From: Candidatus Bathyarchaeia archaeon
GTDB lineage: Archaea > Thermoproteota > Bathyarchaeia > TCS64
Reading direction: 5' to 3'
Length of the DNA stretch: 64,000 nt
Assembly (NCBI GenBank): GCA_050014495.1
Contig: JBEKDF010000009.1
Location: forward strand, 22,850-86,849
This document shows positions 13,285-63,331 of this stretch, piece after piece; the first letter of the stretch is position 1, and every line of letters begins with the position of its first letter. Both the position numbers and the translations under genes were made by a program. The notes under the pieces are model-generated. The model was not told the origin of the DNA. It did no database searches and saw only the letters and a program-made list of their open reading frames with translations.

Positions 13285-13311
13285 TCCAGGTCTTGCTTGT
13301 GCGCATCGCGC

Positions 13312-13455
13312 GTGCTCAATCGACCCTGGATCTTAGAATAATCAGTCGAGTCCCGAGTTCCCCATAGTGGACGAGACAGCCTCATTCAGCATGCTCATCC
13401 ACGAGCCGACTATTGTGCCGTTCATAGATATTTTCTCCTTAACCCTGTTTAACAT
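13312..13455 (-). pseudogene. N-terminal remnant of an HpcH/HpaI-type aldolase
   Basis: MLNRVKEKISMNGTIVGSWMSMLNEAVSSTMGNSGLD*, then degraded, ending at a CGCGCG tract. Confidence 0.5.
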
Positions 13456-13546
13456 CGCTGACTCGATAGTAGGATTCGGAATATCCGATATTACACCTGT
13501 TAGTTAAATGAAATGATGAGAGATCCGTTTCGTGAAAAATAGGGTT

Positions 13547-13873
13547 TTACTCTTCTTCCTTCTTCTTCTTAACGGGCTTCTTTGCCTCGACTTCCTCATC
13601 CTTACGGATGCTTATGGCGATTGTGGAGACGTTCCTCTTCCCGCCGTCCTGCCCCTCGAGCTCCTCGGTTCCGATCTCTATCTCCGGCTTGCTCAACCCC
13701 GCAATGAAGCGGTTTCTGCAGACCTCAGTTACGTCAACTGCCGTACTTATCGCCTGACCTCTCGCCTTGAGTACTACGCCGTCCGCTCCCTTCTGGTTGA
13801 AGGCTGTCAGAACCGCCATTACGTAGGTCATTACAGGTTTACTGCCGATGTAGATTATGCTGTCCTCTGTCAT
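13547..13873 (-). CDS. albA: DNA/RNA-binding protein Alba
   Basis: IYIGSKPVMTYV...KARGQAISTAVDV...RNVSTIAI. Confidence 0.95.
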   Translation of the reverse strand: MTEDSIIYIGSKPVMTYVMAVLTAFNQKGADGVVLKARGQAISTAVDVTEVCRNRFIAGLSKPEIEIGTEELEGQDGGKRNVSTIAISIRKDEEVEAKKPVKKKKEEE

Positions 13874-13942
13874 TCTGGATCAAATAAACGATACCGCATT
13901 GCTTAAAAAAGTATAGACTCCCTGATTGGTGACTCATGAGGA

Positions 13943-14440
13943 TTAATCTATGCTGAGTAGCTGGTCGAGCAGAAGATGGTCGTGGGAAGCTGGACTCCTC
14001 CAACCCTCCTTATAATTAAAATCATACTCCCTTGTATAATCACGAACGAAGCATATCGTCGGATCGCCCTTCACACTACCCCTCTTAAAATCCACCTCAT
14101 AATCATTCATCAGGTCGCATACCTCCCACTGATCCCTAAACATCGAATCGGAGACAACAAGAGGGATCTTTGAGTAACCTGAGGCGTTCAGCACTCGCCT
14201 CCTCCTCTTACCATATTGATAAAGGTCTTCGCCACTCCTAATAGAGATGGGGTGATGCTCCCAAAACACCTTGCCCAGAGGGAAAAAGTCGAAATTATAT
14301 CTCCCGATTTGGTATTCATGGTTCATCTCTTTTGGGGTTAAGCCCAGCCACTGCAGATACCTGAAACACTGGACCTCCTGATAGCTCACGAACCTTTCCC
14401 CCCAGATAACGTAACCAGTGTCGTCTCTGAGTATTTTCAT
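13943..14440 (-). CDS. Hypothetical protein, possible PD-(D/E)XK-like nuclease
   Basis: S..E, HEYQIGRYNFDFF and FWEHHP resemble DUF559/Vsr-like motifs. Confidence 0.45.
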   Translation of the reverse strand: MKILRDDTGYVIWGERFVSYQEVQCFRYLQWLGLTPKEMNHEYQIGRYNFDFFPLGKVFWEHHPISIRSGEDLYQYGKRRRRVLNASGYSKIPLVVSDSMFRDQWEVCDLMNDYEVDFKRGSVKGDPTICFVRDYTREYDFNYKEGWRSPASHDHLLLDQLLSID

Positions 14441-14805
14441 ATGATCACCACCGAAAGTATTTCGGAGGCGCGAGGAGCGAGGAGAATAGTGTGTATGAAG
14501 AGGTACTGGGCGTTCTCGCTCAGCTTCAGGGTGGTATATCCTCCCGCCTTAAACAGATCTAGGGATCATTGGAGATAACATTTACCTATTCTCGGAAAGG
14601 CTGTTATTGTGAAAAAAACTAATAAAGAAATTCGGTGGCTTCGTAATAACTTTAAATGGAGTGTATAAACTGGATATTGTTTAGATATAAGGAGACGTTC
14701 TTGATTAGTATGTGTCAATTATAAGGGATAGAACTTAGGCACAGCATAATACTTGTCACAGGGGTGCATCATAAGTCTAAATACTTTACACGCAGATGTT
14801 AACTC

Positions 14806-14937
14806 TGCCCAAGCAACAGCGACCGGGGATCGAAAAGGCGTGAAGAATCCCGGAGCTGACTCGGAACGGTGGGCCTAAAGGCTCTAGGGGCTTAGGCTTC
14901 AAGAGACCTCACCGTGAAGAGGAGAAATGCTTGGGCA
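14806..14937 (+). ncRNA. Unidentified structured RNA with a K-turn
   Basis: 10-bp closing stem TGCCCAAGCA/TGCTTGGGCA, two internal arms, canonical K-turn, TATA-like CTAAATA ~25 nt upstream and a T-rich tail. Confidence 0.7.
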
Positions 14938-15130
14938 CCTTATTTCTTCGAAAATCATCTCACTGAAAGTATCTACACTGTGTCGTCCTCAGCACTGACG
15001 TAAACATGACTTGCTTCTTCGCTAATTGACGAAAATCCATCCTTTACACATGTGATACGAAGACAATAAGAGAGTACAAGGTTATGCGTCACTAGTAATC
15101 GTTAAAGCCAGTATATCCACCCTTAGACCC

Positions 15131-15583
15131 ATGTCGATTGAAGCAAAGTTAAAGAAGCTAGGACTCGAGCTACCCTCCCCTCCCAACTACAAGGGTAACT
15201 ACATCGGTGCTAAGTGGGCTAATAACATAGCATTCAGTTGCGGACAGGGTCCATTCGATAAGACGAAGAGAGGCATGGTGGGTAAGGAGCTCACTCTCGA
15301 TGAGGGCTACAAGGCAGCCCAGGAGGTTGGCCTCAACTGCCTCTCACAATTAAAAAGGCAGCTCGGGAGCCTCGATAGGATCAAGCAGATCCTCCAAGTT
15401 ATTGGCTTTGTCAATAGCGCTGACGGATTTATGGATCAGCCAAAAGTTCTTAATGGCTTCACAGATCTTCTCGTGAATCTTTACGGTGATCCCGAGGGGA
15501 AGCCAGCGAGAGCAGCGATCCCACTCCATCACCCTGGGTGGGTTGCAGTCGAGGCGTGGATGGTTGTTGAGCTCAAGGAGTAG
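15131..15583 (+). CDS. RidA/YjgF-family protein
   Basis: IEAKLKKLGLELP, GFVNSADGFMDQPKVLNG.TDL, PARAAI. Confidence 0.9.
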   Translation: MSIEAKLKKLGLELPSPPNYKGNYIGAKWANNIAFSCGQGPFDKTKRGMVGKELTLDEGYKAAQEVGLNCLSQLKRQLGSLDRIKQILQVIGFVNSADGFMDQPKVLNGFTDLLVNLYGDPEGKPARAAIPLHHPGWVAVEAWMVVELKE

Positions 15584-16004
15584 ACTTTTTTTCCTCTTCT
15601 CTTATCCTTCCACTTAGATGGTTGAACCCTAACTCGGCATCGGCCAAGAGATTCTTCAACCTTTTTATGCGCCATCCAATCCTTGCCTTAATGAAGGCAT
15701 AAGCGTCGGGATAGTCACTTTTACGAGGGCAATCCTCTGACCCTGGGATACCTGCTAAATTCTGGGGGAGATCTACTGCAAAAATTTTCTCCAGTTCGTC
15801 CACGGGGTCGTGTGTCTCTCTGTAGATATCATTAAGTTTGTCCATACACACACGGCAGGACCCGATGTGTTCTAGTTGTCTGACCTCAGACTCGATGCTC
15901 ACCATGAAGCCGATGTAATCTGCTTCCATATGAAGAAGCCATAGGGGTTCACACTCTTCGGAGAGGGCTGAGAACCTAATACGCCGCATCGATTCACTAG
16001 CCAT
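15573..16004 (-). CDS. Hypothetical protein with an HxxxCxxC motif
   Basis: 143 aa ORF containing EHIGSCRVC. Confidence 0.5.
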   Translation of the reverse strand: MASESMRRIRFSALSEECEPLWLLHMEADYIGFMVSIESEVRQLEHIGSCRVCMDKLNDIYRETHDPVDELEKIFAVDLPQNLAGIPGSEDCPRKSDYPDAYAFIKARIGWRIKRLKNLLADAELGFNHLSGRIREEEKKSTP

Positions 16005-16071
16005 ACCCTAATCAGACTCGAGTTATCTTAAAATCGCTGCGAAAAGGATTAAATCGGGGAAAAGTCCTTAA

Positions 16072-16359
16072 ATGAGAAGTCTTCAGCAAGCCCTGATCCG
16101 AATGAGCCTCGAAGATGTCCTCAAGCTGATTGATGAGTCGAAGAAGTTCCTAGAGCCCTATAGGATTTATGGGCAGATGATAATGGATGGAATCGCTCAG
16201 CTAGAAAGCCTCGAAAAACTAGTCAAGGAGGAGAAGATCCCAGAGGCATATGCGTTGAGTTGTTCGATGTGCGAGCAGATCACCCAATATCGGTCTTTCG
16301 TTCCCCAATTAGCGGATAATATGGAGAGAGTTAGGGAGATTCTAAAAAGTAGTTGCTGA
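16072..16359 (+). CDS. Small helical hypothetical protein
   Basis: Open frame; likely start at MSLEDVLK. Confidence 0.5.
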   Translation: MRSLQQALIRMSLEDVLKLIDESKKFLEPYRIYGQMIMDGIAQLESLEKLVKEEKIPEAYALSCSMCEQITQYRSFVPQLADNMERVREILKSSC

Positions 16360-16373
16360 AAGCAGTTTATGAG

Positions 16374-16455
16374 TTAACGCCTTCTCATGAAAGCATTCAC
16401 GACGATGGCAAGTCCAACGATGATAATAAAGGAAGGCCAGATCTTGTCCCAGATA
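16374..16455 (-). pseudogene. C-terminal remnant of a membrane protein
   Basis: IWDKIWPSFIIIVGLAIVVNAFMRRR* begins directly at the (CG)5 tract 16456-16465. Confidence 0.5.
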
Positions 16456-16614
16456 CGCGCGCGCGATGAAGTTCATAAGATGGCTTAAAAAGTTTCGTAC
16501 AAGCGCCACAAATGGTCTCGTGATCGTCTACCCATAGGTCGCACGCGCCTGATCTCCAATGACAGATATGCTTCAGCTACTGTAAAACGGGTTAACTCGT
16601 GATAGATTATGAGA

Positions 16615-17484
16615 CTAGGCACGCTTATCGATCTTGACGCCCCCTCGGGGGCCTATCGTGGCCTTAGCATGGCGGAGAGCCCAGCAGCTTATGACTATGC
16701 CTACCGGGAGAGACGCAGGGTGCCTTGCAGCCAACTCTATATGGAGGTCGAGGGCGGTCGGCCCCTCACCGAGACCCATTGCACCTATACCGAGTTCATT
16801 CACCTTACCCAGAAGCTCCTCCTCTATAGATGCTAGCTTTGGGTCTGGGTTCCTCACTTTGAATGGTTTTAGTAGCGCCTTCTTCGCGAGGAGCATGCAT
16901 AGGTCCTCACTTCCGCCGATGCCGACCCCGATGAAGTAGGGTGGGCACCCCTGTGACCCAGCCGCAGCGACGGCCTCAATCACGAACTGTTTGACGCCTT
17001 TCATCCCTAAGCCTGGTTTAAGCATTCGATGATTTGCGACATTGCTGCTCCCCCCACCCTTCGGCATGGCGATGAGCTCTAGTTCGTTGCCGGGGACCAA
17101 TTCCCAGTTGATTATTGGTACGAAGGCGCCTGTGTTATCGTTTGTGTTTCCCTTAAGCATGTCCACTGCGTTGGGTCGGATGGGGATCTCCTCGGTGGCC
17201 CGTCTAGTGGCTTTGACAAGTATCTCCTTGAGCTCAGATTTGAGTGGAAACTTGTCTCCCACCTTGACCATGAAGGCGACGACGCCGGTATCTTGGCACA
17301 TGGGCCAGCTATTCTTTCTTGCGAGTGAGGCGTCGTCCAGTATACTCTTGAGCTGAGCTTTCCCGGTTATACCCTTTGTACCCTTCATGAGCCTCTCCAT
17401 TTCCTTGATATATTCGACTGGAAGTTCGGTGGCAGCTATCCTGAGAAGCTCCACTGCTGTGTCTTCTACGATGATGTTAAGCAT
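16615..17484 (-). CDS. Class I fumarate hydratase alpha subunit (FumA/TtdA family)
   Basis: PMCQDTG, PKGGGS, GCPP, GIG.MGLG and CWALR. Confidence 0.92.
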   Translation of the reverse strand: MLNIIVEDTAVELLRIAATELPVEYIKEMERLMKGTKGITGKAQLKSILDDASLARKNSWPMCQDTGVVAFMVKVGDKFPLKSELKEILVKATRRATEEIPIRPNAVDMLKGNTNDNTGAFVPIINWELVPGNELELIAMPKGGGSSNVANHRMLKPGLGMKGVKQFVIEAVAAAGSQGCPPYFIGVGIGGSEDLCMLLAKKALLKPFKVRNPDPKLASIEEELLGKVNELGIGAMGLGEGPTALDLHIELAARHPASLPVGIVISCWALRHAKATIGPRGGVKIDKRA

Positions 17485-18093
17485 TCATTTCATCTCCGAG
17501 ATGATCCTGTCCCTATTGGCGTTCACCTTCATGCCTACATCTTGAGTTAGATTACCACCGTGGGAATCTATAGCCACTATAAGGGGTCCAAAGTTCTCTG
17601 TTTCATAGACCCAAAGGCACTCAGGCATGCCAAGCTCCTCCAACCAGAAGACATCTTTAACCTTCTTAATTCCCTTGGCTGCGAGTAGGGCAGCACCTCC
17701 CGTGAAGGCGGTATAGACGCAACCGAACTTTTGGCACGCCTTCGAGGTCCTCTCACCCATGCCACCCTTGCCGATTAGGACTGCGGGTCGGAAGGCTTCT
17801 ATAAATCTGTCCTCGAATAGTTCCATCCTTGTGCTAGTCGTGGGGCCAGCAGCTACTACCTCCCACTCCTTTCCTCTCTTCCTCATTATGGGACCGCAGT
17901 GGAAGACTCCTACTCCTTTAAAGTCTACAGGGGTCTTCTTCCCCTGCTCAAATAATTCAAGGGCCTTACTATGTGCCTCGTCCCGTGCGGTTATCACTAT
18001 ACCCGTGATGTAAATTATGTCCCCGATATTGAGCTTCCTAAGCTCCGCTTCAGGGACTGGTGTCTTGAGGTGATACTCCAAACCCCTTCTCAC
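17485..18093 (-). CDS. Class I fumarate hydratase beta subunit (FumB/TtdB family)
   Basis: TARDEAH, HCGP, AAGPTTSTRM and IGKGGM. Confidence 0.92.
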   Translation of the reverse strand: MRRGLEYHLKTPVPEAELRKLNIGDIIYITGIVITARDEAHSKALELFEQGKKTPVDFKGVGVFHCGPIMRKRGKEWEVVAAGPTTSTRMELFEDRFIEAFRPAVLIGKGGMGERTSKACQKFGCVYTAFTGGAALLAAKGIKKVKDVFWLEELGMPECLWVYETENFGPLIVAIDSHGGNLTQDVGMKVNANRDRIISEMK

Positions 18094-18365
18094 TCATTTG
18101 AACAGGTCTCAACAGCGATTTAAAACCTGAGGAATTCCATGTTAGACTGGACAAAATTACCGTGTGTTTTCATCTATAATCTAAGTGGCGCTTAGAAAAA
18201 AAGTGAGTATTATCCTTGAATCACCCAAGGCTTCAAGAGATACTAAAGATCTCGTGCTACCCTAACAGTTAGCAGAACCCAAATTAATACCACATTTTCC
18301 AGAGGAAGCTGATCCCGGGCGTTTCTGAGAAAAGGTATAATATATACAGCGTTATAACTTCTGAG

Positions 18366-18785
18366 ATGTCTTCGGAAAAACAGGGGTTCATTATCCACCC
18401 CTCCCCTGATAACAAGGTTTTTCGAGACCGGATTAAGGAGCTGAGCGGAGAAAAGGTCGAACTCTGCTTCCAATGCGGTGCCTGTAGCTCGGGATGTCCA
18501 TTGACCCAGGAGATGGATTACCTCCCCAGCAAGGTGATTAGGCTGGTGCAGCTTGGCCTCGATGAAGCGCTGGACTCTAAGACCATATGGGTCTGCACGA
18601 GCTGCTTCAACTGCGAGGTCAGGTGTCCCCGCGGCATAGACATCGCCAACGTAATGGAGTCGCTCCGCCAACTAGTACTGAGGAAAAAGTACGATCGTGT
18701 GACCCTCGACCAGCTAAGTGACGAGCAATTGAAGGAGCTGCCCCAGGTCGCAATCATCAGTAGTCTGAGGAAACTAACTGCGTGA
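18366..18785 (+). CDS. hdrC: HdrC-like 2x[4Fe-4S] protein
   Basis: CFQCGACSSGCP and CTSCFNCEVRCP. Confidence 0.9.
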   Translation: MSSEKQGFIIHPSPDNKVFRDRIKELSGEKVELCFQCGACSSGCPLTQEMDYLPSKVIRLVQLGLDEALDSKTIWVCTSCFNCEVRCPRGIDIANVMESLRQLVLRKKYDRVTLDQLSDEQLKELPQVAIISSLRKLTA

Positions 18786-18792
18786 TCAAGTC

Positions 18793-19686: not shown

Positions 19687-19687
19687 A

Positions 19688-22029: not shown

Positions 22030-22037
22030 GGATCTGA

Positions 22038-24398: not shown

Positions 24399-24531
24399 CC
24401 CCTCATTCAAGAGTTCTAAACTCTATAATTCAAAATTATACACGTGGAGATGTTTCTTAGGATGTGGAATTAGAAGTCAATTAGCTCGTTGTTTCATTGC
24501 TTTTGAAATGATCGTCGCGCGTACGAACGAC

Positions 24532-34134: not shown

Positions 34135-37100
34135 ATGAAGAAAACAGGCAGTGTAATGGTCGTCGGCGGAGGCATAGCGGGTATTCAAGCTGCTTTGGAC
34201 CTCGCTGACTCCGGCTTCAAGGTCTACATAGTTGAGCGGGAGCCGAGCATCGGTGGAGTCATGACGCAGCTAGATAAGACATTCCCCACGAACGACTGCG
34301 CAATGTGCATACTCGCCCCCAAGCTTGTAAGTGCAGGGCGCCATCCAAATATACAGCTCCTAACCTACAGCGAGATCAAGTCGCTCCAAGGCAAGGAAGG
34401 CAACTTTACCGCGACCATTCTCAAGAAGGCGCGCCATGTTGACCCTGCCAAATGCAAGGGTTGTGGCGACTGCGCCACCAAGTGCCCAACATCCGCCATA
34501 GACACATACAATGCTAACCTCAACGACCGCAAAGCAGTGTACATACGCTTCAGCCAGGCCGTCCCACTTACATATGCGATCGACAAAGACAAATGCCTCG
34601 GCTGCGGCATATGCAGCGAAGTCTGCAAGGCCGATGCCATAAAATACGACGACGTCGACGAGGAGTTGAAACTCAATGTCGGCTCCGTCATACTCGCCCC
34701 CGGCTTCGAGGCATTTGACCCCTCAAAGCTCAGCGAGCTAGGCTACGGCAGATATCCGAACGTAGTTAGCAGCATTGAGTTCGAGCGTATACTCAGCGCC
34801 ACAGGGCCCTACCGGGGAGTCGTCCTTCGTCCGAGCGATGGCGACATGCCCAAGAAGGTCGCATTCCTCCAGTGCGTGGGTAGCCGAGACGCCCGTGTTG
34901 GCAACCCTTACTGCAGCGGTGTCTGCTGCATGTACGCTATAAAGGAGGCCGTCATCGCACAAGAGCATAATCCCGGCCTCGAGGCTAGCGTCTTCTTCAT
35001 GGACATACGCGCCTTCGGCAAGGAATTTGACGACTACTATACACGCGCTGAGCACGAGCACGGAATCAAATTCATCAGGAGCCGCGTTGGCCACATCGAG
35101 CAGGACCCGGATACCGATAGCCTCAACCTGACTTACGAAGAGGGTGGCGAGGTCAAGCAGAATCGCTACGACATGGTGGTCCTGGGTGTGGGTCTCAACC
35201 CGCCGAAGAGCGCGGAGCAGCTCAGTAAGGCGATAGGCTTCACACTCAACAAATATGGGTTCGCAGAGACCAAGCTCTTCAGCCCGCTGGAGACGAGCAG
35301 GAAGGGTGTCTACGTCTGCGGGGCATTCAGTAGCCCGAAGGACATCCCCGACAGCGTCGCACAGGCAAGTGGCGCAGCCGCGAAAGCAGCTAAGGCGATC
35401 TCCAGTGTTCGTGGGACGCAGGTTAATCCCATTATGTTCCCAACGGAGCGCGACATCGCCAACGAGGAGCCACGCGTCGGCGTCTTCGTCTGCTGGTGCG
35501 GGATAAACATTGGCGGCGTAGTCAACGTCCCGAGCGTCGCGGCATATGCGAAGAAGCTCCCCCACGTAGCATATGCAGAGGAGAACCTCTACACATGCAG
35601 CCAGGACACACAGGACAGGATCAAGAACACCATCATTGAGTACAAGCTCAACCGCGTTGTCGTCGCCTCATGCACCCCAAGGACACATGAGCCACTCTTT
35701 AGAGCCACCCTAAGGGAGGCGGGCCTCAACGAGTATCTCTTCGAGATGGCGAACATACGCGATCAGTGCAGCTGGGTACACATGCACGAGAAGGAAGCCG
35801 CAACAAAAAAAGCTGAGGACCTTATCAGGATGGCGGTCGCCAAAGCGAGCCTCCTCCAACCACTTGAGAAGCATAAGATACACGTCACACCAGGAGCACT
35901 CATCGTCGGCGGTGGCGTAAGCGGTATGACTGTCGCCCTCGAAATCGCAGACCAGGGCTACGAGGTCCACCTCGTTGAGAAGGAAGCTGAGCTAGGCGGT
36001 AACATGAAGAGGATTAAGTTCCTCCCATCGGGGGAAGATCCTGCCGCGGAGCTGGCTAAGCTCGAGGCGCGAGTAAGGAAAAACCCTAATATCCGGCTCT
36101 ACACGGGAACGCAGGTCGTAGAGATAGACGGCTACGTCGGCAACTTCGAGACTACCCTTGTCAGTACAGAGAAGGAGACACAGATCAAGCACGGCGTAGT
36201 GATCGTAGCCACCGGCGGGGTGGAATACACGCCAAAGGAGTACGAATATGGCAAGCACCCCGACGTCATGACTCAATTCCAGTTAGAGGAAAGGCTCCAC
36301 GGAGGCTACAAGCCCAACACAGTAGTTATGATCCAGTGCGTAGGCAGCCGTAATGAGGAGCACCCGAACTGCAGCCGTGTTTGCTGCACCGGCGCTGTTA
36401 ACAACGCCCTAAAGGTCAAGGAGGCAAACCCCGCAGCAGACATCTACATCCTCTACAAGGACATGAGGACATACGGCTTCAAGGAGGACTACTACCGGGC
36501 CGCTGCAAACAAAGGTGTCATATTCATCAGATACGACGACGGGCACAAGCCCGAGGTCCTAGCTCAAGGTGGCCTCAAGGTGAAGGTACTCGATCTCGTC
36601 CTAATGGAGAACGTGGTCATCGAGCCCGACGCCCTCGTGCTCAGCGCGGGTGTACTACCCGCCGCTGACAATAAGCGCCTCGCGGGGATGCTCAAGGTAC
36701 CTATCAGCAAGGACGGCTTCTTCCTAGAGGCACATATGAAGTTGCGCCCCCTTGACTTCGCGACGGAGGGCGTCTACCTCTGCGGTTTAGCACACGGCCC
36801 AAAGACCATCGATGAGTGCATAAGTCAGGCCAGTGGCGCCGCTGCGAGGGCGCTGACCATCCTAAGCCACGACGAGATCGAGGCCGAGGGCGCCATTGCC
36901 AGCGTCGATGAGGATGCCTGCAGCGGCTGCCAGATGTGCGCCGCCGTCTGCGAGTTCAAGGCGATAGAGATGGTGAAGAAAGGCGACAAGATACACAGCC
37001 ACGTCATCGCCGAGGTCTGCAAGGGTTGCGGAGTCTGCGCAGCCACTTGCCCGAGTGGGGCAATCACGGTCGGGCACTTCACAGATCTTGAGATACTTAG

Positions 37101-43630: not shown

Positions 43631-45136
43631 TCAGCTGTGGAGCTTGATTCGAGCCTCGGCGGAATCCAATTTCTGCAGTGCTTCCCTAATTCTTTCTAGT
43701 CTTTCCGAGTGACGCTTCTCTTGCTCTGTTAGACTTTTCTTCCTATTTGCAATCATCTTTCTTACCGATTCCGGGGCTGGTCCACCAGTCGTGCTTCTCC
43801 CCAGCAGGTTTTGGTTAAGATCGAGAGCCGAGGTCAATTCCTCGATTGAGACGTCGATCCTCCTACCAATAATCTTCTCGGAGGCTTTTGCTATCATTTC
43901 TGGGCCTATCTCTTCCGCATTCTTTTCCTCCTCTAATGCCTTTATTACAACTTCTACGATGATATCGTGTGCTTGGCGGAAGCTGATGCCATGGTTTCTC
44001 ACGAGGGTGTCAGCGAGGTCGGTTGCTGTGGTGAAGCCCTTTCTTAGGTTCTTAAGCATCACGTCCCTCTTCGGGGTGAGAGTTGCAACGGCTCCCGCCA
44101 TCACCTTCGTACTTCCCACGGCCGTGTCTAGAGCCACAGGTTCGAGTAGTATCCTGTCGACGGTATTCGTGTATGTGACACCCTTGACTGAGGCTACCGT
44201 AGAGACTAGGTTTCCAATCGACTCAGCTGAGTAACTCTTAATGTATTCAAACTCAAGGGGATTCTTCTTTTGTGGCATGATGCTGCTCGTCCCTGCGTAT
44301 GCCTCGTCGATGTCGATCATGTTGTACTCGTCACTGCTCCAGATCTGGAGATCCTCTGAGAGGCGCCCGATCTGCGTCAGATGGATTGCGATGGCTGAAG
44401 CAAGCTCGATGACGTAGTCGATGGTGGCTACTGCGTCGGTACTGTTCTCACAAAGGCCATCGAAACCTAGGTACTCCCTCATCTTCTCCCGGTTGACGTC
44501 CCAGCTTGTCCCAGCGAGGGCAGCAGCCCCCATGGTGCTCAGGTTCGTTCGATTGTAGACACCCTCAAGCCGCTCCACAGTGCGTGCGGCTGCTTCTACG
44601 TGGGCGAGGATGTAGTGAGCGAGCGTCACGGGTTGAGCTTGTCTGATGTGTGTGTAGCCCGGCATGAGTGTCTCGACATTATCCTCCGCTTTCCCGATGA
44701 GTAGTCTCTGGAAATCGATGACTGCTCCTATGAGTCTCTCCGTCTGGTCCCTATAATAGATGCGGCGCTGGGCATGTCCCATATCGTTTCGACTCCTGCC
44801 GATGTGCATCTTTCCACCGACCTCACCCACTAGTTTGATGAGCGCGGTCTCCGTGGACATGTAACCGACGAGGGAGGCGTCCATTGTAGCCGCTTTCTCA
44901 ACGGCATTGATCCCCTCGAGGATCCTACTAGTCTCCTCAGCTGTGATTATTTTCTGCTCCTCTAGCATGATGGTGTGGGCGCGGTGAATGAGGACTTGAC
45001 CATAGTAGCTGGCTACATCGAAGCTCTGGGGGTTTCGCCTCCCCTTGTTGAGTTCCGTGATCGACTCCGCCTCGGTTTTCTTCGCTCTGCCGAACCTCTC
45101 CCAGTCCGTCTTCGGATGCTCACCCATAGTAATCAA
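43631..45136 (-). CDS. Argininosuccinate lyase-like (fumarase superfamily)
   Basis: H.GRSRND, MPGYTH..AQP, GAAALAG and GTSSIMPQKKNP. Confidence 0.85.
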   Translation of the reverse strand: MITMGEHPKTDWERFGRAKKTEAESITELNKGRRNPQSFDVASYYGQVLIHRAHTIMLEEQKIITAEETSRILEGINAVEKAATMDASLVGYMSTETALIKLVGEVGGKMHIGRSRNDMGHAQRRIYYRDQTERLIGAVIDFQRLLIGKAEDNVETLMPGYTHIRQAQPVTLAHYILAHVEAAARTVERLEGVYNRTNLSTMGAAALAGTSWDVNREKMREYLGFDGLCENSTDAVATIDYVIELASAIAIHLTQIGRLSEDLQIWSSDEYNMIDIDEAYAGTSSIMPQKKNPLEFEYIKSYSAESIGNLVSTVASVKGVTYTNTVDRILLEPVALDTAVGSTKVMAGAVATLTPKRDVMLKNLRKGFTTATDLADTLVRNHGISFRQAHDIIVEVVIKALEEEKNAEEIGPEMIAKASEKIIGRRIDVSIEELTSALDLNQNLLGRSTTGGPAPESVRKMIANRKKSLTEQEKRHSERLERIREALQKLDSAEARIKLHS

Positions 45137-50803: not shown

Positions 50804-50997
50804 CGACCCGTTGAGTCATGGGTTGCGAATCGCTTGTATGTTATCACTCGTCGTCACGCGCGTCTAATGGTCTCCATGACGAGCGCGCAGTCTAGCCACA
50901 CTTTTCTAAGTGATACATTAAGATCCTGACCATCATATACATGCGAAAGCGAACGGGTTCAAATAACACGAAATGAGTCAATTACAGGGTATTAGAA

Positions 50998-52615: not shown

Positions 52616-52798
52616 AATTCCGTTACTCCTTCAGATTGGTTCCGATTAATCCTCTAATAGAATCGATTTTAAACGTTTCATATGAGAATGATGGGCGCGC
52701 GCACGCAGAGGAGGTTCTAGCTAAGATTAAGGAGCTAAAAAAGTGACTTCGATGTGATGAGTTTTTAATTATGTAATAAGGGTAGCACGATCTATTGT

Positions 52799-53937: not shown

Positions 53938-53960
53938 AATGATGAACTATGCATGCGCGC

Positions 53961-54169
53961 AGTCGTGTTATGTACCTGAGGATCAGTACATGTTCGGGCC
54001 CGAGATTATGGTGGCGCCTGTGCTTGAGTTGGGGGCTCGGAGTCGATGTGTCTACCTTCCCTCTGGTGTTAGGTGGCGTGAGGGTGATACGGGGTTTGTT
54101 CGTGAGGGGGGTGTGTGGATTGATGTCGCTGCGCCACTGGATATGATCCACCATTTTTACAGGTTGTAA
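53961..54169 (+). pseudogene. C-terminal fragment of a GH31 glycoside hydrolase
   Basis: EDQYMFGPEIMVAPV...VYLP...W...APLD; begins right after GCGCGC. Confidence 0.75.
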
Positions 54170-54263
54170 ACTCGCATGCACGACTTTTAGAAATTGAAGA
54201 ATCCATCGAAACTCATTTTTGTTTATTATGCTCGCTCGTTTTGTTAGTTCTAGGTGAGTAAGC

Positions 54264-56920: not shown

Positions 56921-57000
56921 TGCTGATGACTGCTCATGACTGTCGGTGACTGTCGATGACGGTGACAGCTGATGATGACTGTCGATGACTGCTGATGACT
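56921..57000. repeat. ~10-nt-period tandem repeat (TGYYGATGAC-like)
   Basis: tgctgatgac tgctcatgac tgtcggtgac tgtcgatgac ... gtcgatgact gctgatgact. Confidence 0.8.
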
Positions 57001-57308
57001 TAGTGTCGACATCTACTGTACCATGGCGCGGCATGGGGATTACGATATCCTTTACCTCCTCGTCCATGAATTCATCATTATTATCATTAACAGCATTGTA
57101 ATGACATCATCAGCATCACTGTCATCCATTGTCACGCCTTGCTCCGCAGAAACTGTCTATGGTGTACGCTACTGCTGTATTACACCCTCGCGTTGAATGG
57201 CCATCAGCAGAGCTTTGGGCTTACTTTTGACCAGAGGCGTCGGTAGCTCCTTCTTGAGCACAACCTTCGGCTGTAATACAGTAGCCTGTAATACATAAAC
57301 CGAAGGTT

Positions 57309-57430
57309 CCCGTTGTTGCTTTGCCGAAGACATCCGTTGCTTTGCTGAAGGTTTTTTCAAAGGCTCCCGTTGTTGATTACCGTTAGAAGACGCCCGTTGA
57401 TTACCATTGACGCCCGTTGATGCCCGTTGT
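57309..57430. repeat. Clustered (C)CCGTTG repeats
   Basis: cccgttgttg, tccgttgc, cccgttgttg, ccgttag, cccgttga, cccgttga, cccgttgt. Confidence 0.75.
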
Positions 57431-57615
57431 AAAGTGTGGTTTGCTTGTATAGTAGGGCTCTGACCAGCAGGTACGCCTTCTTCAACATCATCATCCATGG
57501 AACTAACTTCCGCTTCTGTAGTTACGGTCACCCTATTACAATGCAGTAACTCCTGTACGGGCTTCTACTAGTCAAGCAGACTTCGGGAGAGTACCGGCTC
57601 CATTCGCACATGTAT

Positions 57616-57966
57616 TCACGTACGCTTACCTTCATCGCGTTCTGATTTCTCCAAGAGTTCCTTTAGATCCTTCTCGTATTTATCCCAGAATTTTCTAGTT
57701 TCAGGAGACAGTTTATTTCTTCTGTACAATTCTCTTATTTCCGTTGGTGGCAGGCCTCTGAGTTCCTCCGGAAAAGGAGGTGAAGGTTCCTTCAATCCTC
57801 CAATGTTTCTATACTCCATTTTAGTGGGACCATTAATTATTTCTTTTTTCTCAACCGCGTTCATGAGTGCTTCTCTTATTACCTCGGTGACATTGATGTC
57901 CAGGTATTTGATTTTCTCTTTCAACTCAACTGGGATTCTGGCGGTGACGATGGCTGATTTAGTCAA
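57616..57966 (-). CDS. Ribbon-helix-helix (CopG/CcdA/VapB-like) protein with a C-terminal extension
   Basis: SAIVTARIPVELKEKIKYLDINVTEVIREAL; TTG start after SD-like GGGGTG. Confidence 0.75.
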   Translation of the reverse strand: MTKSAIVTARIPVELKEKIKYLDINVTEVIREALMNAVEKKEIINGPTKMEYRNIGGLKEPSPPFPEELRGLPPTEIRELYRRNKLSPETRKFWDKYEKDLKELLEKSERDEGKRT

Positions 57967-58456
57967 CTGTATTACACCCCTTCTGACACAGTTTAAGTAG
58001 CGGCCGTAATACACTTGTAAGGTTTATCCCTGTGTGCCTGCTGGTCGCGTACGCAGGAGGACTGTAATACGCCTCTAGCCCTTATGACTGTAATAAATGC
58101 AGGTTCATATTTTTAGCCTGTATACAGGGTTAATGTTGAATATACGCACAGAACCACACTACTAGTACCATCCACTGTATTCCCACTAACATCTGCGGAG
58201 GTGGTTGCCCTGTTTTTTGAGATGTGGTCGTCTGTTGTCTCTACTGGTGGAGATGACTGTATTACACCTGCGCATGAATAACCTGATTATTTTTTAATAG
58301 GCTAGCCTAATATGGTGTGATGAGCCACCTGTATACACATGTTAGTAACTGAGTGAATTCTACGACTGATAATTGGTACATGCAAAAAATTGACTTTGGA
58401 TATCTTTATTCCAAGAGTTCACAAAAAAGGGAAAAATTGTGTTTACTACGCGTCTT

Positions 58457-58708
58457 TTACTTCTTCTCTAGATAGGCGATGTTGTTGACTACCGATACCT
58501 CTATCTGGTTACCCATGTCCCTTGCATCGATCCTCTTTTTCAACTGAGTGCGGATATAGTTCGCGTCCTTCTCTTTTATGTCAACTTTCACTAGTTTAGA
58601 CTTGCTATTGCAGAACTGGTCGATTATCGGATCGTACTTACTTCCCTTTCTGTACCTTCTACTGGGTTTCTTTTCAACATCAACTAACTTGAATGATACA
58701 TCAGCCAT
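58457..58708 (-). CDS. Small basic hypothetical protein, probable nucleic-acid binder
   Basis: 83 aa, Lys/Arg-rich KKPSRRYRKGSKYDPIID, own TATA (TTTATTAA). Confidence 0.75.
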   Translation of the reverse strand: MADVSFKLVDVEKKPSRRYRKGSKYDPIIDQFCNSKSKLVKVDIKEKDANYIRTQLKKRIDARDMGNQIEVSVVNNIAYLEKK

Positions 58709-58720
58709 ATTTATTCACTC

Positions 58721-58809
58721 ATATGATGAGTCATCATATAGTTAATAAATTTATTCTATAATCCAATTTAATATTTGGTATAGTTACTCTCTTCATATAA
58801 GAGTAACTA
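58721..58809. promoter_or_regulatory. Two perfect palindromes in the promoter of the 83-aa gene
   Basis: ATATGATGA-G-TCATCATAT (58721-58739) and TAGTTACTCT-N9-AGAGTAACTA (58781-58809). Confidence 0.7.
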
Positions 58810-59123
58810 CATTTATCCCATTTACTTCATCTTCCTCCGGATCTTCCTGCCATATGCGATCTTCGTATTGATTATAGGATCCCCGGATTCCCTCTCCTTC
58901 AGATAACCCACAGACTTATACAGATTTTACAGAGTTTATCCGTGGGGTAGGAAGAGGGAAACTACTCTCATGTTCGATTCCCTAACTACTTTACCCATCT
59001 TTTAACACCAAAGAGACCATTGTCTCTAACAGAATGGTGCTATTTGTGGTTTTTAAGATAAACTAGAACCATGCAAAAATGTTCTAAAGATGCGTGTGAT
59101 TCCTCATTTTGCGCGCGCGCATG

Positions 59124-59750
59124 TTATTCTGGCTCAGTCTCTTGACGATCATTTGTACTTGTTGGCTTGTTGAAAAATGTCTTGTTCATTAAATTAGTGA
59201 TATGCGTAATTATTGGTATGATCGTGATGTTGGTTAGACCCAGAATCAGGTAACCCAAAGCATTAGTAAATTGTGCATTTTGCTTTTCTTGTAGATAATC
59301 TAAGGATTTAATATGCACAATATCAGGGAATGAAAAATTGACGGCATTTTCAGAAAATGCTAAGTCACTCAATACTGTAACGTTTACTCCATAGGCGCCT
59401 TCGTGAGTAAACACCATGTAGACCTTCGTCGAATATGGCGTTGTTTTATTTGTGTTCACATTAAGATAGGCATTATAGTCCCAGCTATTGGTCCAAGCCC
59501 ACTGTTCCTCCATAGTCCAACAATCAGGAAATCTGACCATTACCGATGCGGTTTCGTTACCTTGGAGTAAGTTTGGTTGAACTCTAATGTCCGCTGTAAT
59601 AACGTCTCCAATTACGAAAGCCTGTGTAGGAGTAAAGGTAATTTGTATTTTTCCAACTGATGCGCCTGCTTTTGGAGTCAGTTCCGCAACAAATGGTGAG
59701 CTTAAATCTGGTTGGGGTTTAGAAATAGAGCTCTTTTTCTCGCTGAACAC
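59124..59750 (-). CDS. Low-GC hypothetical protein: beta-rich domain plus C-terminal TM helix, possibly 5'-truncated
   Basis: AT-rich ORF whose stop lies 3 nt from (GC)5 at 59111-59120. Confidence 0.5.
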   Translation of the reverse strand: MFSEKKSSISKPQPDLSSPFVAELTPKAGASVGKIQITFTPTQAFVIGDVITADIRVQPNLLQGNETASVMVRFPDCWTMEEQWAWTNSWDYNAYLNVNTNKTTPYSTKVYMVFTHEGAYGVNVTVLSDLAFSENAVNFSFPDIVHIKSLDYLQEKQNAQFTNALGYLILGLTNITIIPIITHITNLMNKTFFNKPTSTNDRQETEPE

Positions 59751-60045
59751 AGTATGGGATTCAAGTTGGACCTAAACGACGAGAGTTCTGAAGGAGTATA
59801 TTCGCTCTCCTCGACCGTGGGGACTCCGTTTCCGATGTAGCTGATAAGCTGAAGATTGATCTGACTCTGGCTTGGGCTCTAGGAGGAGACCGGACCTCTG
59901 GCTGGTCACCAGATAAAATTGCAGAAATACCGTCGGTATCGTCGGCGACGGGGCTCCGCCGTGAGCCGGGGGTCCTCCTCGTCGCGTCCACGTGACGGAA
60001 GCGCCTGTAGAGGTAGGGGCTCTGAAGCCTCGTACCCATCGAGGG

Positions 60046-60282
60046 CTATGGGCGGCGACCGGTCTCTCCTGACGTGCCGCACCGGGTGCAGCGCCAAGCC
60101 CCGCCGGTCCACTCGAAGAGCCAACGCCCATGGCAGCCCCCGCACAGGATCTCCCTCAGCCACCCGGCCCACCGGCAGCCAGGGCAGCGGGCCCGGTACT
60201 CGACGACGTGGAGGCCGTCGACGCGGCGGAGGATCAGCTCCCCGCCACAGGCGGGGCAGGCGGGCGACGTCGAGGTGTCCAC
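60046..60282 (-). CDS. Small multi-CxxC zinc-ribbon protein
   Basis: CPACGG, CPGC, CGGC and CTRCG; GTG start after SD GGGGTGA. Confidence 0.55.
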   Translation of the reverse strand: MDTSTSPACPACGGELILRRVDGLHVVEYRARCPGCRWAGWLREILCGGCHGRWLFEWTGGAWRCTRCGTSGETGRRP

Positions 60283-60283
60283 C

Positions 60284-61331
60284 TCACCCCTCCACCTGTG
60301 CCCCGGCCCCGATGACTTGGTCAACCTCCAGGCCCCGCCTTTCCCACGTCCTGACACCGTCTTGACGGGTCCTCGGGCGCCCAGATGGGACCTCCGGTTC
60401 AAGGATGTCCTTGAGCCCCCTGTAGTGGTTCCTGATGGTGACCTCGGTGACGCCGGCTGCGTCTGTGATCATCTTCTGGGTTCTCTTCTCGTTCATCATC
60501 TGGCAGGCGATGTAGAGGGCCGCGGCGGCGAGCCCCATAGGGCCCTTGCCCGCCGTGGTCTTGAGCTTCCCCGCCCTCCTGAGTATCTCGACCGCCTTCT
60601 GCTGGGTCTTCTCGCCCACGCCGACCTTGGTGGCTATCTTAGGGACCCCTAGCTGGGCGTCGGGGATGGGCATCTGCATGCTCAGCTCCCTGAGTATGAG
60701 CCTGTAGCAGCGGGCGATGTCCTTCTTGTCTATTGTGCTTACCCTGGTTATCTCCCGTAGGGTCCTCGGAGTCTGGGTCATCCTGCACGCGGCGTACAGG
60801 GCGGCCGCGGCGATGGTGGATATGCTCCGCCCCCGGACTAGGCCCTGGTTGAGGGCCTTACGGTAGATGATGGCTGCCTTCTCCTTTATCGTCGGCGGTA
60901 TGTGGAGCTTATCCGATAGCCTGTCGAGCTCCGCCATCGCCTGTGCGAGGTTCCGGTCCGTGGAGCTGTGGACGCTGGACCTTACCTGCCACTTCCTGAG
61001 CCTGAGCATCTGGAGCCTCGTGTTGAGGGGAGTGTTCCTGCCGTAGGCGTCCTTGTCGACGTGGCCTATGACGGTGGCGAGGCCATTATCGTGGACGGCG
61101 AAGCTGAGGGGGGGCGCCGACCCTGTTACGGGTCTCCTCTTCGCCGGGTGTGAAGGCCCTCCACTCCGGGCCGAGGCTGATCGTGGACTCGCGTAGGACT
61201 AGGCCGCACGCGCCGCAGATCACCTCCCCGGTACCTCCGTCGTAGACGATGTTCCCGCCGCCGCACTCCGGGCAGACATCATCTTCGACGGGGATGCCCC
61301 TCTCCTTCGATATAATCGTCCTTCCTCTCAC
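60284..61331 (-). pseudogene. tfb: Transcription factor B, frameshifted
   Basis: Zn ribbon CPECG..CGACG, GPEWRAF and cyclin repeats (GRSI..IAAAALY; AGVTEVTIRN); +1 frameshift in G7 at 61108-61114; aberrant C-terminal tail. Confidence 0.85.
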
Positions 61332-61334
61332 TCC

Positions 61335-62555
61335 CTAGATCTGATTCGTCCTGGAATCCGGGGCTTCACCCCTGGATCCAGGTTCCTTAGGCCCCGGTTC
61401 TCCTCCCTTCTCATGGGTCTCACCTCCTCCCGGCTCGGGTTCTGGCCCCTCGAACCAGACGATGAGGAGGCCCTCTTCGGCGTTGAAGTAGGTTCGGCCT
61501 GTGATGCCCTTCTCTGCGAGCGTGGCCAGGGCCTCGTCGATAGCCTCGGGCCTGTTAGTAGCGCCTATGACTATGACGTGGCCCCTGCTCTTCAAGCCAT
61601 CCATGCTAGCGAGGAGCTGGGCGACGACGCGGCGCTCAACCTCTCCGGTGACCTCGCTCCTTTTCGGCGCGATGGCGTCTATCTCGTCGATGAACAGGAT
61701 GCTGGGAGCGTTCTTCTCGGCGTTCTCGAACATCTTCCTTAGATTGCCTTCGGACTCGCCGTAGAACTTGCTCATGATCTCGGGGCCGTTTATCGCGTAG
61801 AAGTTGGCGTCTGACTCGTTAGCGACTGCGCGGACCAGGAGCGTCTTACCACAACCGGGCGGGCCGTGGAGCAGCACACCCTTCGGCGGGTCTATGCCTA
61901 GGCGCTGGAATATCTCCGGGTGCCTCAGCGGCAGCTCCACCATCTCCCTTATGCGCCGGATCTCCTCTTTCAGGCCGCCGATGTCCTCATATGTGGTCCG
62001 GCTCGTCATCTCCATCTCGGGAACCGGTTCGCCTAAAATCTGAATCTCCGAGGTAGGAGAGATCTTGACGATCCCAGCTGGCCGCGTGTTGACTACCAAG
62101 AAGGGCACCGAGTGGCCGAGCATCATGATGAGCAGCGTGTCGCCACGCATCGCGGGGCGGTCGATGAGGCGGTCCTTCACGAAGCGTATGAAGTCGTTGT
62201 CCACGCTTATCCTGATGTCAACCGGCGAGAGCTTCACCGAGGCGGCGTACTCCGCCTCGGCCCTCTTGACGTCGACGAACTCGTTGATGCTCACGTTGCA
62301 GTTCTTCCGGATGAAGCCGTCGATGCGCAGGAGGCTGAGTCCCTGGTCCTCTGGGTAAGCTGGCCAAGCCTTCGCCGCGGTGGACTTCTTGCCGACGATC
62401 TCGACGACATCGCCTACGGTGACACCGAGGGTCTTCATCGTCTCAGAGTCCATGCGCGCGATGCTTCGGCCGACGTCTCTCTGCTGCTTCGCTTCGGCTA
62501 CTTTCAACTTTATGCTGCTCAAAGGGTCCACCTGGAGGTGTTTCTCGGCTTTCAA
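61335..62555 (-). pseudogene. cdc48: Truncated Cdc48/VAT (N domain plus incomplete D1) with an unrelated tail
   Basis: [22 protein letters not shown] and [13 protein letters not shown], then diverges before the RRPGRFD Arg finger; no D2. Confidence 0.85.
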
Positions 62556-62640
62556 GCTAGGTCTTAATCAATATAAGATTTAGTTTGTTATCCGTCTTTA
62601 TGAGTGTGTACGCATCCTTGTTTTTCATCACGTCACGCGC

Positions 62641-63110
62641 TCCTATGAAAACATTTCCAGAGCACACGGTGCCCGGGCAGCATCCACTTAGTTCCGCTGG
62701 CCATCATACGCTCTCTTACCCATGTTCTTAAGTTTTCTCTCCGTCAACCCCCTATCCTCGCCCCTGTAAGGCTCCTCACTCACCAGCATGAAGAACATGA
62801 TCCGAGCCATCTCGCGAGCCACAGCCACCACGGCGCACCCAGCGGCCCTACGCCTCGACACCCACTCATACAGCCCACGGAACCGGGGATCATACCGCAC
62901 AGCAGCCTGAGCAGACTCCACCATCGCCCACCTCAGCCTCTTGTTACCCGGACCGGAGACCCCTCCGATTCGGGTCCTCTCCCAGGACTGGTGGACCGAG
63001 GGCGCTAGTCCCATCCACGACGCGAAGGCCTTGTCGTTATGGAACCTGCCGATGTCGCCGGCTTCGGAGAGGATCAGCGCCGCGGTGAAGTAGCCGACAC
63101 CCGTCATCAC
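62641..63110 (-). mobile_element. IS110-family remnant (C-terminal transposase domain plus 3' end)
   Basis: GVG..TA..ILSE.GD..RF...ASW.GLAP...QS, GNKRLR and VAVAR; 5'-truncated at CGCGCGCGC. Confidence 0.85.
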
Positions 63111-63268
63111 GCGCGCGCCTTAAGGTAACTGATTGATTCTCTTAGCTTCTCGATCTTTACCCTAACGAAGATCCGTTTATCGCGAGGGGTCTTTATCTCA
63201 AGGACATTCTCCTTGCCTATGGTTTCCTTTAGCCTCTCGACGGTTCTCAAGTTCTCCTCAGAGTAGCT
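63111..63268 (-). pseudogene. N-terminal remnant of a NuoC/group-4 hydrogenase subunit-like gene
   Basis: MSYSEENLRTVERLKETIG..V.EIKTPRDKRIFVRV...LRE.I.YLK, cut at GCGCGCG. Confidence 0.5.
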
Positions 63269-63331
63269 CATATCATTCACCCTAGTACCCTGCACTCACC
63301 AACAACTTGACAACACCATCGAGCGCGCGCT

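Follow-up and report, generated by a model that had tools for sequence, protein, structure and literature searches.

Alternating C/G tracts in this Bathyarchaeia genome (G000) are newly added sequence marking joints left by DNA loss or rearrangement, and sequence comparison indicates that these scars were probably written by a mobile primase-like enzyme (AEP) that extends broken 3′ ends with GCGC copied from a folded RNA of its own. In the window, by which we mean the whole 64,000-nucleotide stretch that was analysed, all 13 CG runs reported by an earlier note are present where it placed them, including (CG)5 at 16456 and (GC)5 at 59111. Twelve runs of at least 6 nt occur here: ten from that report and two intragenic ones that it had omitted, at 34429 within an HdrA-like ORF and at 62454, where the run is synonymous and in frame in CDC48. 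The motif GCGCGCGC occurs six times in the window, against 0.70 ± 0.83 expected from 100 shuffles. The tracts and the features next to them are as follows, with strand given for genes and elements:

13307–13312: CGCGCG scar where about 560 bp present in G012 are deleted
16377–16454, minus strand: 3′ tail of a small membrane-protein gene, severed at the tract
16456–16465: (CG)5 scar; G012 and G011 match up to 1–2 nt before the tract
16544–16548: CGCGC, within a rearranged 150-bp spacer shared with the 16456 scar; possibly a short or decayed scar
24516–24521: CGCGCG at a variable junction
50857–50862: CGCGCG scar in the spacer separating luciferase-like and nitroreductase genes
50883–50888: GCGCGC scar in the same spacer as the 50857 scar
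52695–52702: (GC)4 scar; flanking blocks ordered otherwise in G016
53955–53960: GCGCGC scar with AT flank, cut point of a GH31 gene
53961–54169, plus strand: tail of the GH31 (glycoside hydrolase family 31) gene, encoding its C-terminus (PF21365, E 5.8e-14)
59111–59120: (GC)5 scar, then AT
62636–62640: CGCGC target at which an IS110-family remnant ends
62641–63109, minus strand: 3′ part of an IS110-family element, severed at the tract; no tract there in intact paralogues
63110–63118: 9-nt scar joining the IS110 remnant and an unrelated gene fragment
63119–63322, minus strand: 200-bp fragment with one gene's end and the next gene's start; paralogue on contig C5, tract on each side
63323–63330: (GC)4 scar, target of an IS5/IS1182-like element; the left-flank paralogue has no tract
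63331–64000, minus strand: end of an IS5/IS1182-like DDE element, which continues past the contig end

Genes are indeed cut at tracts, as had been proposed for the GH31 tail at 53955 and the membrane-protein tail at 16456 (the latter tail has a weak LiaI-LiaF-like TM1 match, E 0.007, under the cut-off), and IS ends coincide with tracts at 62636 and 63323. The proposed 'NuoC-like/IS110 fusion' stood in part: the IS110 remnant and a paralogous gene start are both cut at 63110, but no fused ORF exists because a stop codon follows immediately after the tract. The label 'NuoC-like' was the earlier note's own name, for which a family search gave no confirmation. A search for the supposed aldolase remnant returned no match, and the 5-mer at 14468 is not a breakpoint, since it sits within an unbroken match to G012. 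Synteny does break at 13307 and 16456, where about 0.56 and 1 kb of the G012 sequence are deleted, and at 24516, where the spacer measures about 0.14 kb here versus 0.24 kb in G016, 11 kb in G002 and 25 kb in G012.

The genome was assembled from metagenome data into 92 contigs and has 7.5% contamination, so such junctions could be assembly or amplification chimeras, a reading to which we assign a negligible probability. Contigs from four sequencing runs of other studies cross 50857/50883, 52695, 53955, 59111, 62636, 63110 and 63323 with zero differences, which refutes it for the eight sites checked, all beyond position 44500. Moreover, the signature is common to many genomes, single-contig ones included, and old tracts show CpG decay.

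Genome-wide, there are 645 alternating C/G runs of at least 7 nt. Runs of 6, 7, 8, 9 and 10 nt number 481, 186, 192, 144 and 111, and only 12 reach 11 nt or more; five other dinucleotide alternations decay geometrically with length, whereas C/G runs end abruptly at 10 nt. The same cap appears in tract-rich relatives, where 11-mer windows amount to 2–15% of 9-mer windows. The expected intergenic enrichment was found throughout the genome, with runs of 8, 9 and 10 nt occurring at 1.5–3 per Mb in ORFs of at least 200 aa and at 93–167 per Mb outside them. Among ends of repeats with at least 95% identity, 82 of 243 fall at runs of at least 6 nt, compared to 1.4 in shifted controls, and existing tracts are reused as breakpoints with new partners. 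Tract-rich and tract-poor genomes are distributed patchily within genera.

Comparison with intact homologues shows what happened at these joints. Across 34 flanks that were neither IS-associated nor duplicated and had a homologue of at least 85% identity, the homologue overlaps the tract by just 0–2 nt in 32. The tract is thus absent at the break in intact DNA, and was therefore added rather than cut at. Six collinear deletions of 159–455 bp are each replaced by an 8–10-nt tract, and the lost segments contain no alternating run longer than 5 nt; one relative has, in addition, a non-native A in its filler. These data support the earlier proposal that the tracts are scars of a recurrent DNA-joining process, but not the three sources offered for them: restriction-type cleavage at GCGC/GCGCGC whose ends are then filled and ligated, breakage favoured by Z-DNA, or a recombinase that recognises a CGCG core. 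The length of 10 and the GC phase would agree with a filled G^CGCGC cut, and established tracts do serve again as breakpoints; however, each option requires the motif in intact DNA, where the homologue overlap and the lost segments show it to be missing. We regard these options as very improbable overall and, as the source of the tracts, refuted by the homologue comparison, while they may account for secondary reuse of tracts.

Mobile elements are conspicuous at the scars. Nearly every end of the IS5/IS1182-like family sits in a tract, and 64 of 71 IS-end pattern matches in G000 carry a run of at least 5 nt, the other seven including chance matches. The tracts might accordingly be excision footprints and adjacent-deletion joints of this DDE element, which targets GCGCGC and whose repeated insertion, loss and misaligned rejoining would make tracts longer and more widespread. 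In keeping with this, the family is nearly restricted to Bathyarchaeia and somewhat more frequent among tract-rich genomes (14 of 27, versus 21 of 123 tract-poor ones, in sets that include kin and so are not independent), one copy in G002 has one end in a tract and the other 200 bp off at a random site, and tracts acquire new partners. The accessible part of one report also describes IS elements as able to occupy rearrangement joints without target duplication (10.1101/2024.06.02.596822). Nevertheless, we consider this origin unlikely. Only 44 of the 645 tracts touch an end of this family, the target is missing at the break in intact homologues, and the six collinear cases show no simple 4-nt duplication. 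Tract-rich G079 (one contig, 86% complete), G099, G203 and G235 have no transposase match at E 0.001, and the association is weak once the host's own family is left out (4 of 14 versus 10 of 102). The cap at 10 nt, the non-native A and the lineage-specific flanks described below are left unexplained. A transposase source, convincing in 40 relatives, weakened when 261 genomes were compared, and GCGCGC is not the tip of the IS, since it is missing from one end and identical copies vary at position −6. When both flanks of one IS were sought in a single intact homologue, no pair was found. Two IS110 groups keep GCGCGCG in their 3′ non-coding portion. IS5/IS1182-like and IS110 elements together flank just 48 of 645 tracts, and neither was found in tract-rich G079; a search for IS110 in G079 and G021 gave no match. 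IS elements use the scars and are probably not their source.

The candidate writer is encoded outside the window, at G000:C53:7058-7864. This small AEP of 270 residues matches PF01896 above the cut-off, and its catalytic motifs, D99/D101, SGxxGxH154 (S148-G149-G152-H154) and D205, are invariant in 39 sequences. The AlphaFold model (pLDDT 91) has a PriS fold, with Pyrococcus furiosus primase as the best Foldseek match (E 3.5e-12) and archaeal PriS proteins as the top matches (TM 0.6 over the query). Broken copies lie in five further places, whereas viral contigs gave only four matches, all distant. Outside the class, four of five AEP-positive genomes tested have 45–197 nine-mer windows, in counts not controlled for G+C, and AEP-positive G349 has merely 7. 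Other candidates were set aside: a second PriS-like gene on C20 (439 aa) has no adjacent RNA motif, no reverse transcriptase (RVT_1) was found in G000 and four relatives, and nucleotidyltransferases of PF01909, present in five of five genomes tested, were uninformative.

Downstream of the AEP, and not in the upstream block at which a template site had been sought, lies a predicted folded RNA of about 90 nt whose conserved motif was found at 59 of 97 AEP loci. Two helices show compensatory changes at 11 of 14 pairs, in a structure derived from the same alignment, and a long-range, pseudoknot-like pairing, partly imposed by the search pattern, shows T-A/C-G exchange. Its unpaired linker holds GCGC-type letters, and the RNA has no match in Rfam. 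In G000, eight copies lie outside the window, seven with GCGCAU and the remaining one CpG-decayed; the distance between AEP and RNA is about 2.4 kb here, compared with about 0.7 kb where a relative has them closest together, and the locus is present in contigs of sequencing runs. The RNA occurs in 14 of 27 tract-rich versus 2 of 123 tract-poor genomes of the same non-independent sets, for which P values exaggerate significance, and in 10 of 14 versus 1 of 102 outside its own family. The other 13 tract-rich genomes gave no RNA match. Two of the tract-rich genomes are single contigs: neither RNA nor small AEP was found in G021, and G079 yielded no small AEP and the 3′ half of the RNA only, in family, alignment and RNA searches that covered the whole genome (its tract analysis covered 81 stretches, 1.62 of 1.98 Mb). 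Both would therefore require an element that was present in the past or only in passing.

If the RNA serves as template, its flank should be reflected in the scars. The two bases 3′ of GCGC in the RNA, AU or UA, agree with the AT or TA that precedes scars of the same genome in eight of nine clean cases. In genomes with AU-type templates (G000, G005, G016), AT before G (AT-G, the hyphen marking the start of the scar) is the top scar class, and in those with UA-type templates (G099, G089, G093, G103, G109), TA-G exceeds AT-G 4–18 times. G109, in which an intact AEP adjoins a GCGCG-UA template, also has a large TA-CGCG class (88), whereas G012, with an AU template, shows no preference (20 versus 20); templates of G011 were outside the reach of the patterns used. 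Scars of G000 have T just before them in 62% (background 37%) and A before that in 44% (background 29%), with no enrichment at position −3, so that template pairing would span just 2 nt. AT(GC)nAT occurs there at 5, 9 and 5 sites for n = 3, 4 and 5, and TA(GC)nTA at none over the same range. A GCGC-UA template leads one to expect a native T followed by a new A at junctions in G079, and this is seen at six of six G-start junctions with a non-native last base, although the G079 template itself sits inside a scar, which makes this flank case circular. In G000, the non-native last base is T in six of nine cases, after a native A in only three. (TAGC)n runs of G079 have no matching template in its assembly; TAGCTAGC windows number 5 in 9.8 kb at loci with a TAGC-repeat template versus 1 in 137 kb at other loci.

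Alternatively, a host end-joining enzyme, either Ku/LigD polymerase or the core primase, could write the filler without an RNA template, the GCGC of the AEP-linked RNA then being a guide to existing scars or a coincidence. G000 does have an operon of Ku, LigD polymerase and ligase, the AEP element is missing from many tract-rich genomes, and IS110 RNAs likewise carry GCGCGCG, which makes putative RNA guides to scars plausible. We nonetheless judge this unlikely: Ku and LigD polymerase, also present in G016 and G012, occur in nearly tract-free G001 and were not found in tract-rich single-contig G021, so their presence does not track the tracts. No RVT_1 enzyme was found in G000 and four relatives, the patchiness within genera fits a mobile factor, and an unsystematic look beside the AEP revealed no nuclease or recombinase for which a guide would be of use.

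For RNA-templated writing by the AEP, we envisage that a broken end pairs over 1–2 nt with the AU or UA beside the template, and that the enzyme would extend it by GCGC, at times again after a 2-nt slip. Both ends would thereby gain tails that are self-complementary and at most about 6 nt long; these could anneal over at least 2 nt and be filled and ligated by host enzymes into a 6–10-nt scar. IS5/IS1182-like and IS110 elements may then adopt the scars as safe targets, and ageing scars would decay by C-to-T changes at CpG. The accessible text of one source reports microhomology joining by AEPs and reverse-transcriptase activity of a truncated plasmid AEP (PMC4538821). On balance, we favour the wider view of a mobile RNP in Bathyarchaeia and some other Thermoproteota, in which a primase-fold enzyme and a template RNA would form a telomerase-like end-healer whose self-complementary tails glue any ends, leaving hundreds of lineage-specific scars per genome and a niche for two unrelated transposon families.

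Telomerase consists of TERT, with a reverse-transcriptase fold, and telomerase RNA, and also heals broken ends. The system proposed here resembles it in that a DNA 3′ end is predicted to pair over a short length with an internal RNA template, next to a putative pseudoknot-like pairing, and in that a short repeat would be added. It differs in that the enzyme has an AEP/PriS rather than a reverse-transcriptase fold, that its repeat is self-complementary and remains at joints inside the chromosome instead of at chromosome ends, and that just 6–10 nt are left by a mobile, archaeal system. DRT10, as far as the accessible part of its description goes, is a reverse transcriptase that acts in phage defence and whose repeat cDNA is protein-primed (10.1101/2025.10.16.682844); it shares a prokaryotic enzyme with an adjacent non-coding RNA dictating a tandem repeat, whereas the AEP is predicted to extend genomic DNA ends, its product remaining in the chromosome. 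Joining by the LigD polymerase domain or archaeal PriS likewise involves the AEP superfamily, end extension and break annealing but, in the accessible text of PMC4538821, no dedicated template RNA or fixed filler. IS5/IS1182 elements such as IS1272 prefer palindromic targets, according to the accessible part of PMC5678879, as do RNA-guided IS110/IS1111 elements; here, both kinds sit in tracts. Within the literature accessible to our search, we found no paper that describes these tracts or links an AEP to a template RNA.

Should another enzyme prove to be the writer, the filler itself would still have no precedent in the literature searched: it marks deletion joints across the genome, has a length cap, is specific to lineages and serves two transposon families as a target. 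If the reading holds, RNA-templated repeat addition to DNA ends would have arisen a second time, on a primase fold rather than that of a reverse transcriptase, for break rejoining, and the small enzyme and its RNA with a swappable template could be developed into a tool for programmable end-tailing. One of the most abundant archaeal groups would then possess a new route of genome rearrangement, with the scars as its readable record.

All of the alternating C/G runs listed in an earlier note are present at their window coordinates, and GCGCGCGC occurs six times in the window against 0.7 expected. In the source genome as a whole (G000; 3.1 Mb, 92 contigs; window at G000:C9:22850-86849), runs of 4–10 nt number 10384, 1901, 481, 186, 192, 144 and 111, with only 12 longer than 10 nt; the five remaining dinucleotide alternations show a geometric fall-off with length. 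Runs of 8–10 nt in G000 are 30–110 times denser outside long ORFs than within, and two window runs lying in genes had been omitted from the earlier note. As proposed, breakpoints fall at tracts: 82 of 243 near-identical repeat ends in G000 lie on them, versus 1.4 in the control. Eight window tracts are spanned without any difference by contigs from four runs of other studies, a check from which a run flagged as a possible source was excluded and in which the studies may share one campaign. The proposed aldolase remnant was not confirmed, and comparison with a related genome, G012, shows no joint at the 5-mer at 14468. Three further features of the window are:

window:1033-2418, tyrosine recombinase, 461 aa, with no tract link seen
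window:18366-41966, long cluster of heterodisulfide-reductase-like, FlpD/MvhD, succinate-dehydrogenase-like and [NiFe]-hydrogenase genes, nearly tract-free
window:60284-62555, a second TFIIB gene, divided between two ORFs, and a second, truncated CDC48 gene (406 aa), with G+C above the rest of the window

The view that tracts are scars of recurrent DNA joining is supported by comparison with intact homologues, which lack the filler added at joints. A homologue of at least 85% identity reaches the tract at 80 flanks, of which we set 46 aside by inspection because they are IS ends, runs internal to IS110 or junctions that are duplicated; the homologue overlaps the tract by 0–2 nt in 32 of the remaining 34 and by 4–5 nt in two. 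Six tracts have both of their flanks in collinear order in a single homologue but separated by a gap (167, 317, 455 and 316 bp in G000, 159 bp in G021, 198 bp in G007); 8–10 nt stand in place of each gap, and the lost DNA holds no alternating run longer than 5 nt. The small overlap and the tract-free lost DNA together exclude, as the tract source, the three processes suggested earlier, namely cut-and-fill at GCGC/GCGCGC, Z-DNA breakage and a recombinase with a CGCG core. The remaining collinear cases are shared tracts, one-base variants or synonymous coding runs, with no 4-nt duplication among them. Five of the six deletion sizes are near multiples of ~155–160 bp, perhaps by coincidence. As tracts age they decay, mainly through C-to-T changes at CpG, and existing tracts get reused with new partners.

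Over 261 genomes of the class, nine-mer windows are patchy, with zero to few in most genomes and hundreds in members of several families, low-G+C ones included, and the length cap near 10 nt recurs in relatives. One of these, G079 (one contig, 39% G+C), has a run spectrum like that of G000 (107, 140, 87 and 97 runs of 7–10 nt and 18 of 11 nt in 81 stretches), repeat ends bound by tracts (12 versus 1.8, same stretches) and tracts excluded from ORFs (21 of the 81 stretches); its flank is TA|GCGC instead of AT|GCGC (two bases before the tract, bar, tract start), and it has additional (TAGC)n runs. For the comparisons below, tract-rich genomes have at least 25 nine-mer windows, and the 150-genome list was rebuilt from family tallies with counts entered by hand.

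An IS5/IS1182-like family, whose best NCBIfam matches are below cut-off, ends within tracts nearly everywhere, as would be expected if tracts were IS footprints; two IS110 groups likewise end at tracts, with GCGCGCG in their 3' non-coding part. However, only 44 + 4 of the 645 runs of at least 7 nt in G000 touch IS5/IS1182-like or IS110 ends, tests contradict an IS-scar origin in G000, and tract-rich G079, G099, G203 and G235 gave no transposase match (nor G079 and G021 an IS110 match), making this origin improbable. Because one IS5/IS1182-like end in G002 lacks GCGCGC and position -6 varies between identical copies, the GCGCGC is target-derived; these elements and IS110 are users of tracts. 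The IS5/IS1182-like element occurs in 14/27 tract-rich versus 21/123 tract-poor genomes, and outside the taxonomic family of G000 in 4/14 versus 10/102. In G002, an IS5/IS1182-like copy (L076:1079-2577) lies between ~200-bp direct repeats, with GCGCGC at one end and a tract-free site at the other. The GCGCGCG conserved in the 3' non-coding part of IS110/IS1111-type elements (L087:2560-2730, G000:C17:58707, C48:7023) is a candidate bridge or seek RNA guide aimed at scars; one such group abuts the ends of the IS5/IS1182-like DDE element. The accessible text of published work describes IS elements at rearrangement joints (10.1101/2024.06.02.596822) and palindrome targeting by IS1272 (PMC5678879).

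Writing of tracts by a host filler also seems unlikely: G000 encodes Ku and LigD polymerase, yet so does tract-free G001, and a search of G021 did not turn them up; we rejected them as writer. The complete Ku, LigD-polymerase and ligase-phosphoesterase operon (G000:C3:64206-67463) is shared by G001, G012 and G016. No RVT_1 reverse transcriptase was found in G000 or four relatives.

A different enzyme is encoded at G000:C53:7058-7864, a 268-aa small primase-like protein (AEP) with a PriS fold in its predicted structure and catalytic residues invariant in 39 sequences. It has 91 homologues, mostly on 1–4 kb contigs, and broken, tract-bounded copies on C13, C22, C24, C32 and C51 of G000. One RNA, with 59 copies found by pattern in 97 AEP-family loci, lies at or after the gene's 3' end. 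It begins with a 5' strand that pairs with a loop far away, followed by a hairpin, by a single-stranded linker that closes with GCGC-like letters and an A-rich stretch, and by another hairpin. Both sides have changed in 11 of 14 predicted pairs, far above shuffled and slid controls, the structure having been derived from the alignment that was scored; in the long-range pairing, one position shows a T-A/C-G exchange (29 versus 22 of 51 distinct copies). The CUGA and GAUGA words of the RNA may form kink-turns, and it has no Rfam match. Seven of the eight G000 copies carry GCGCAU, the nearest lying 2.4 kb downstream of the C53 gene, past two small ORFs and an insertion.

The AEP-RNA element is often found inside arrays of a second repeat of ~26 nt, core GGTGGAAGTGAGGATAAG, with ~160 copies in G000 outside the window (C15, C16, C24, C50, C53, C72, C74, C75 and others), in single orientation between small genes, resembling integron-type cassette array repeats; in L353 and L354 it lies ~100 bp before the AEP start. 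C53 also carries a tyrosine-recombinase-like gene (weak Pfam match), and G000:C20:26047-27366 a second PriS-like gene (439 aa) with an extra C-terminal domain.

Scar flanks mostly agree with the RNA template. In G000 the base before G-start tracts is T in 359/575, preceded by A in 159/359, with no enrichment at position -3; the pairing signal thus spans 2 nt only, which counts against templated addition. AT(GC)nAT occurs at 5, 9 and 5 sites for n=3–5 and TA(GC)nTA at none, with the reverse in G079 (6, 28 and 19 sites). Taking templates from 31 RNA matches and counting four flank classes in 261 genomes, reversed controls included (G011, G122, G128, G138 and G140 are left out of the tally), we found that template and scar flank agree in 8/9 genomes, with one tie. 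AT|G versus TA|G counts are 186/51 (G000), 86/21 (G005), 106/42 (G016) and 20/20 (G012, the tie) where AU follows GCGC in the RNA, and 17/225 (G099), 21/253 (G089), 15/64 (G093), 14/247 (G103) and 17/183 (G109) where UA does. G097 (33/5) and G092 (10/95) show flank agreement only, their templates being divergent, and G079 (26/388) is circular. In G109, whose intact AEP lies next to a GCGCG-UA template, TA|CGCG sites number 88, versus 17–19 in its AT classes, and TAGCTAGC occurs near loci with TAGC-repeat templates.

With tract-carrying homologues removed beforehand, the last base is non-native and preceded by two native bases at 6/18 G-start junctions in G079, and all six read T and then a new A. 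The non-native base in G000 is T in 6/9. The AEP-linked RNA may instead guide something to existing scars, but a guide role alone leaves the non-native A unexplained.

The observed correlations, together with the flanks, the capped length of an added filler and the presence of gene and RNA, make RNA-templated tailing by the AEP the probable explanation of the tracts. Model R1 detects the RNA in 16/150 genomes, 14/27 tract-rich versus 2/123 tract-poor, and outside the taxonomic family of G000 in 10/14 versus 1/102, kin not being independent in either comparison. Against this, thirteen of the 27 tract-rich genomes gave no RNA match; G021 lacks both the RNA and the small AEP, and G079 lacks the small AEP and has only half of an RNA, so the element would often have to be past or passing. 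Outside the class, the AEP occurs in seven genomes of two families (phylum sample of 321), tract-rich in 4/5 tested without G+C control.

A broken 3' end would pair with the template flank over 1–2 nt, GCGC would be synthesised with an occasional 2-nt slip, and two self-complementary tails of up to ~6 nt would anneal by at least 2 nt, which would yield the 6–10-nt range, before fill-in and ligation by the host. In operation the present system would resemble telomerase and DRT10 (10.1101/2025.10.16.682844), but it belongs to neither, its enzyme being an AEP. The accessible part of one source reports that AEPs anneal breaks and that a truncated plasmid AEP, one case, has reverse-transcriptase activity (PMC4538821); that of a survey of mobile AEP families makes no mention of Bathyarchaeia or non-coding RNA (PMC5862659). 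Our literature search found no paper on this AEP-RNA/tract system. RNA variants in L450 (G140), L401, L405, L423 and L389 carry other templates (GGCCG, TAGCTAGC, ATGC), which predict different scar words in their hosts.
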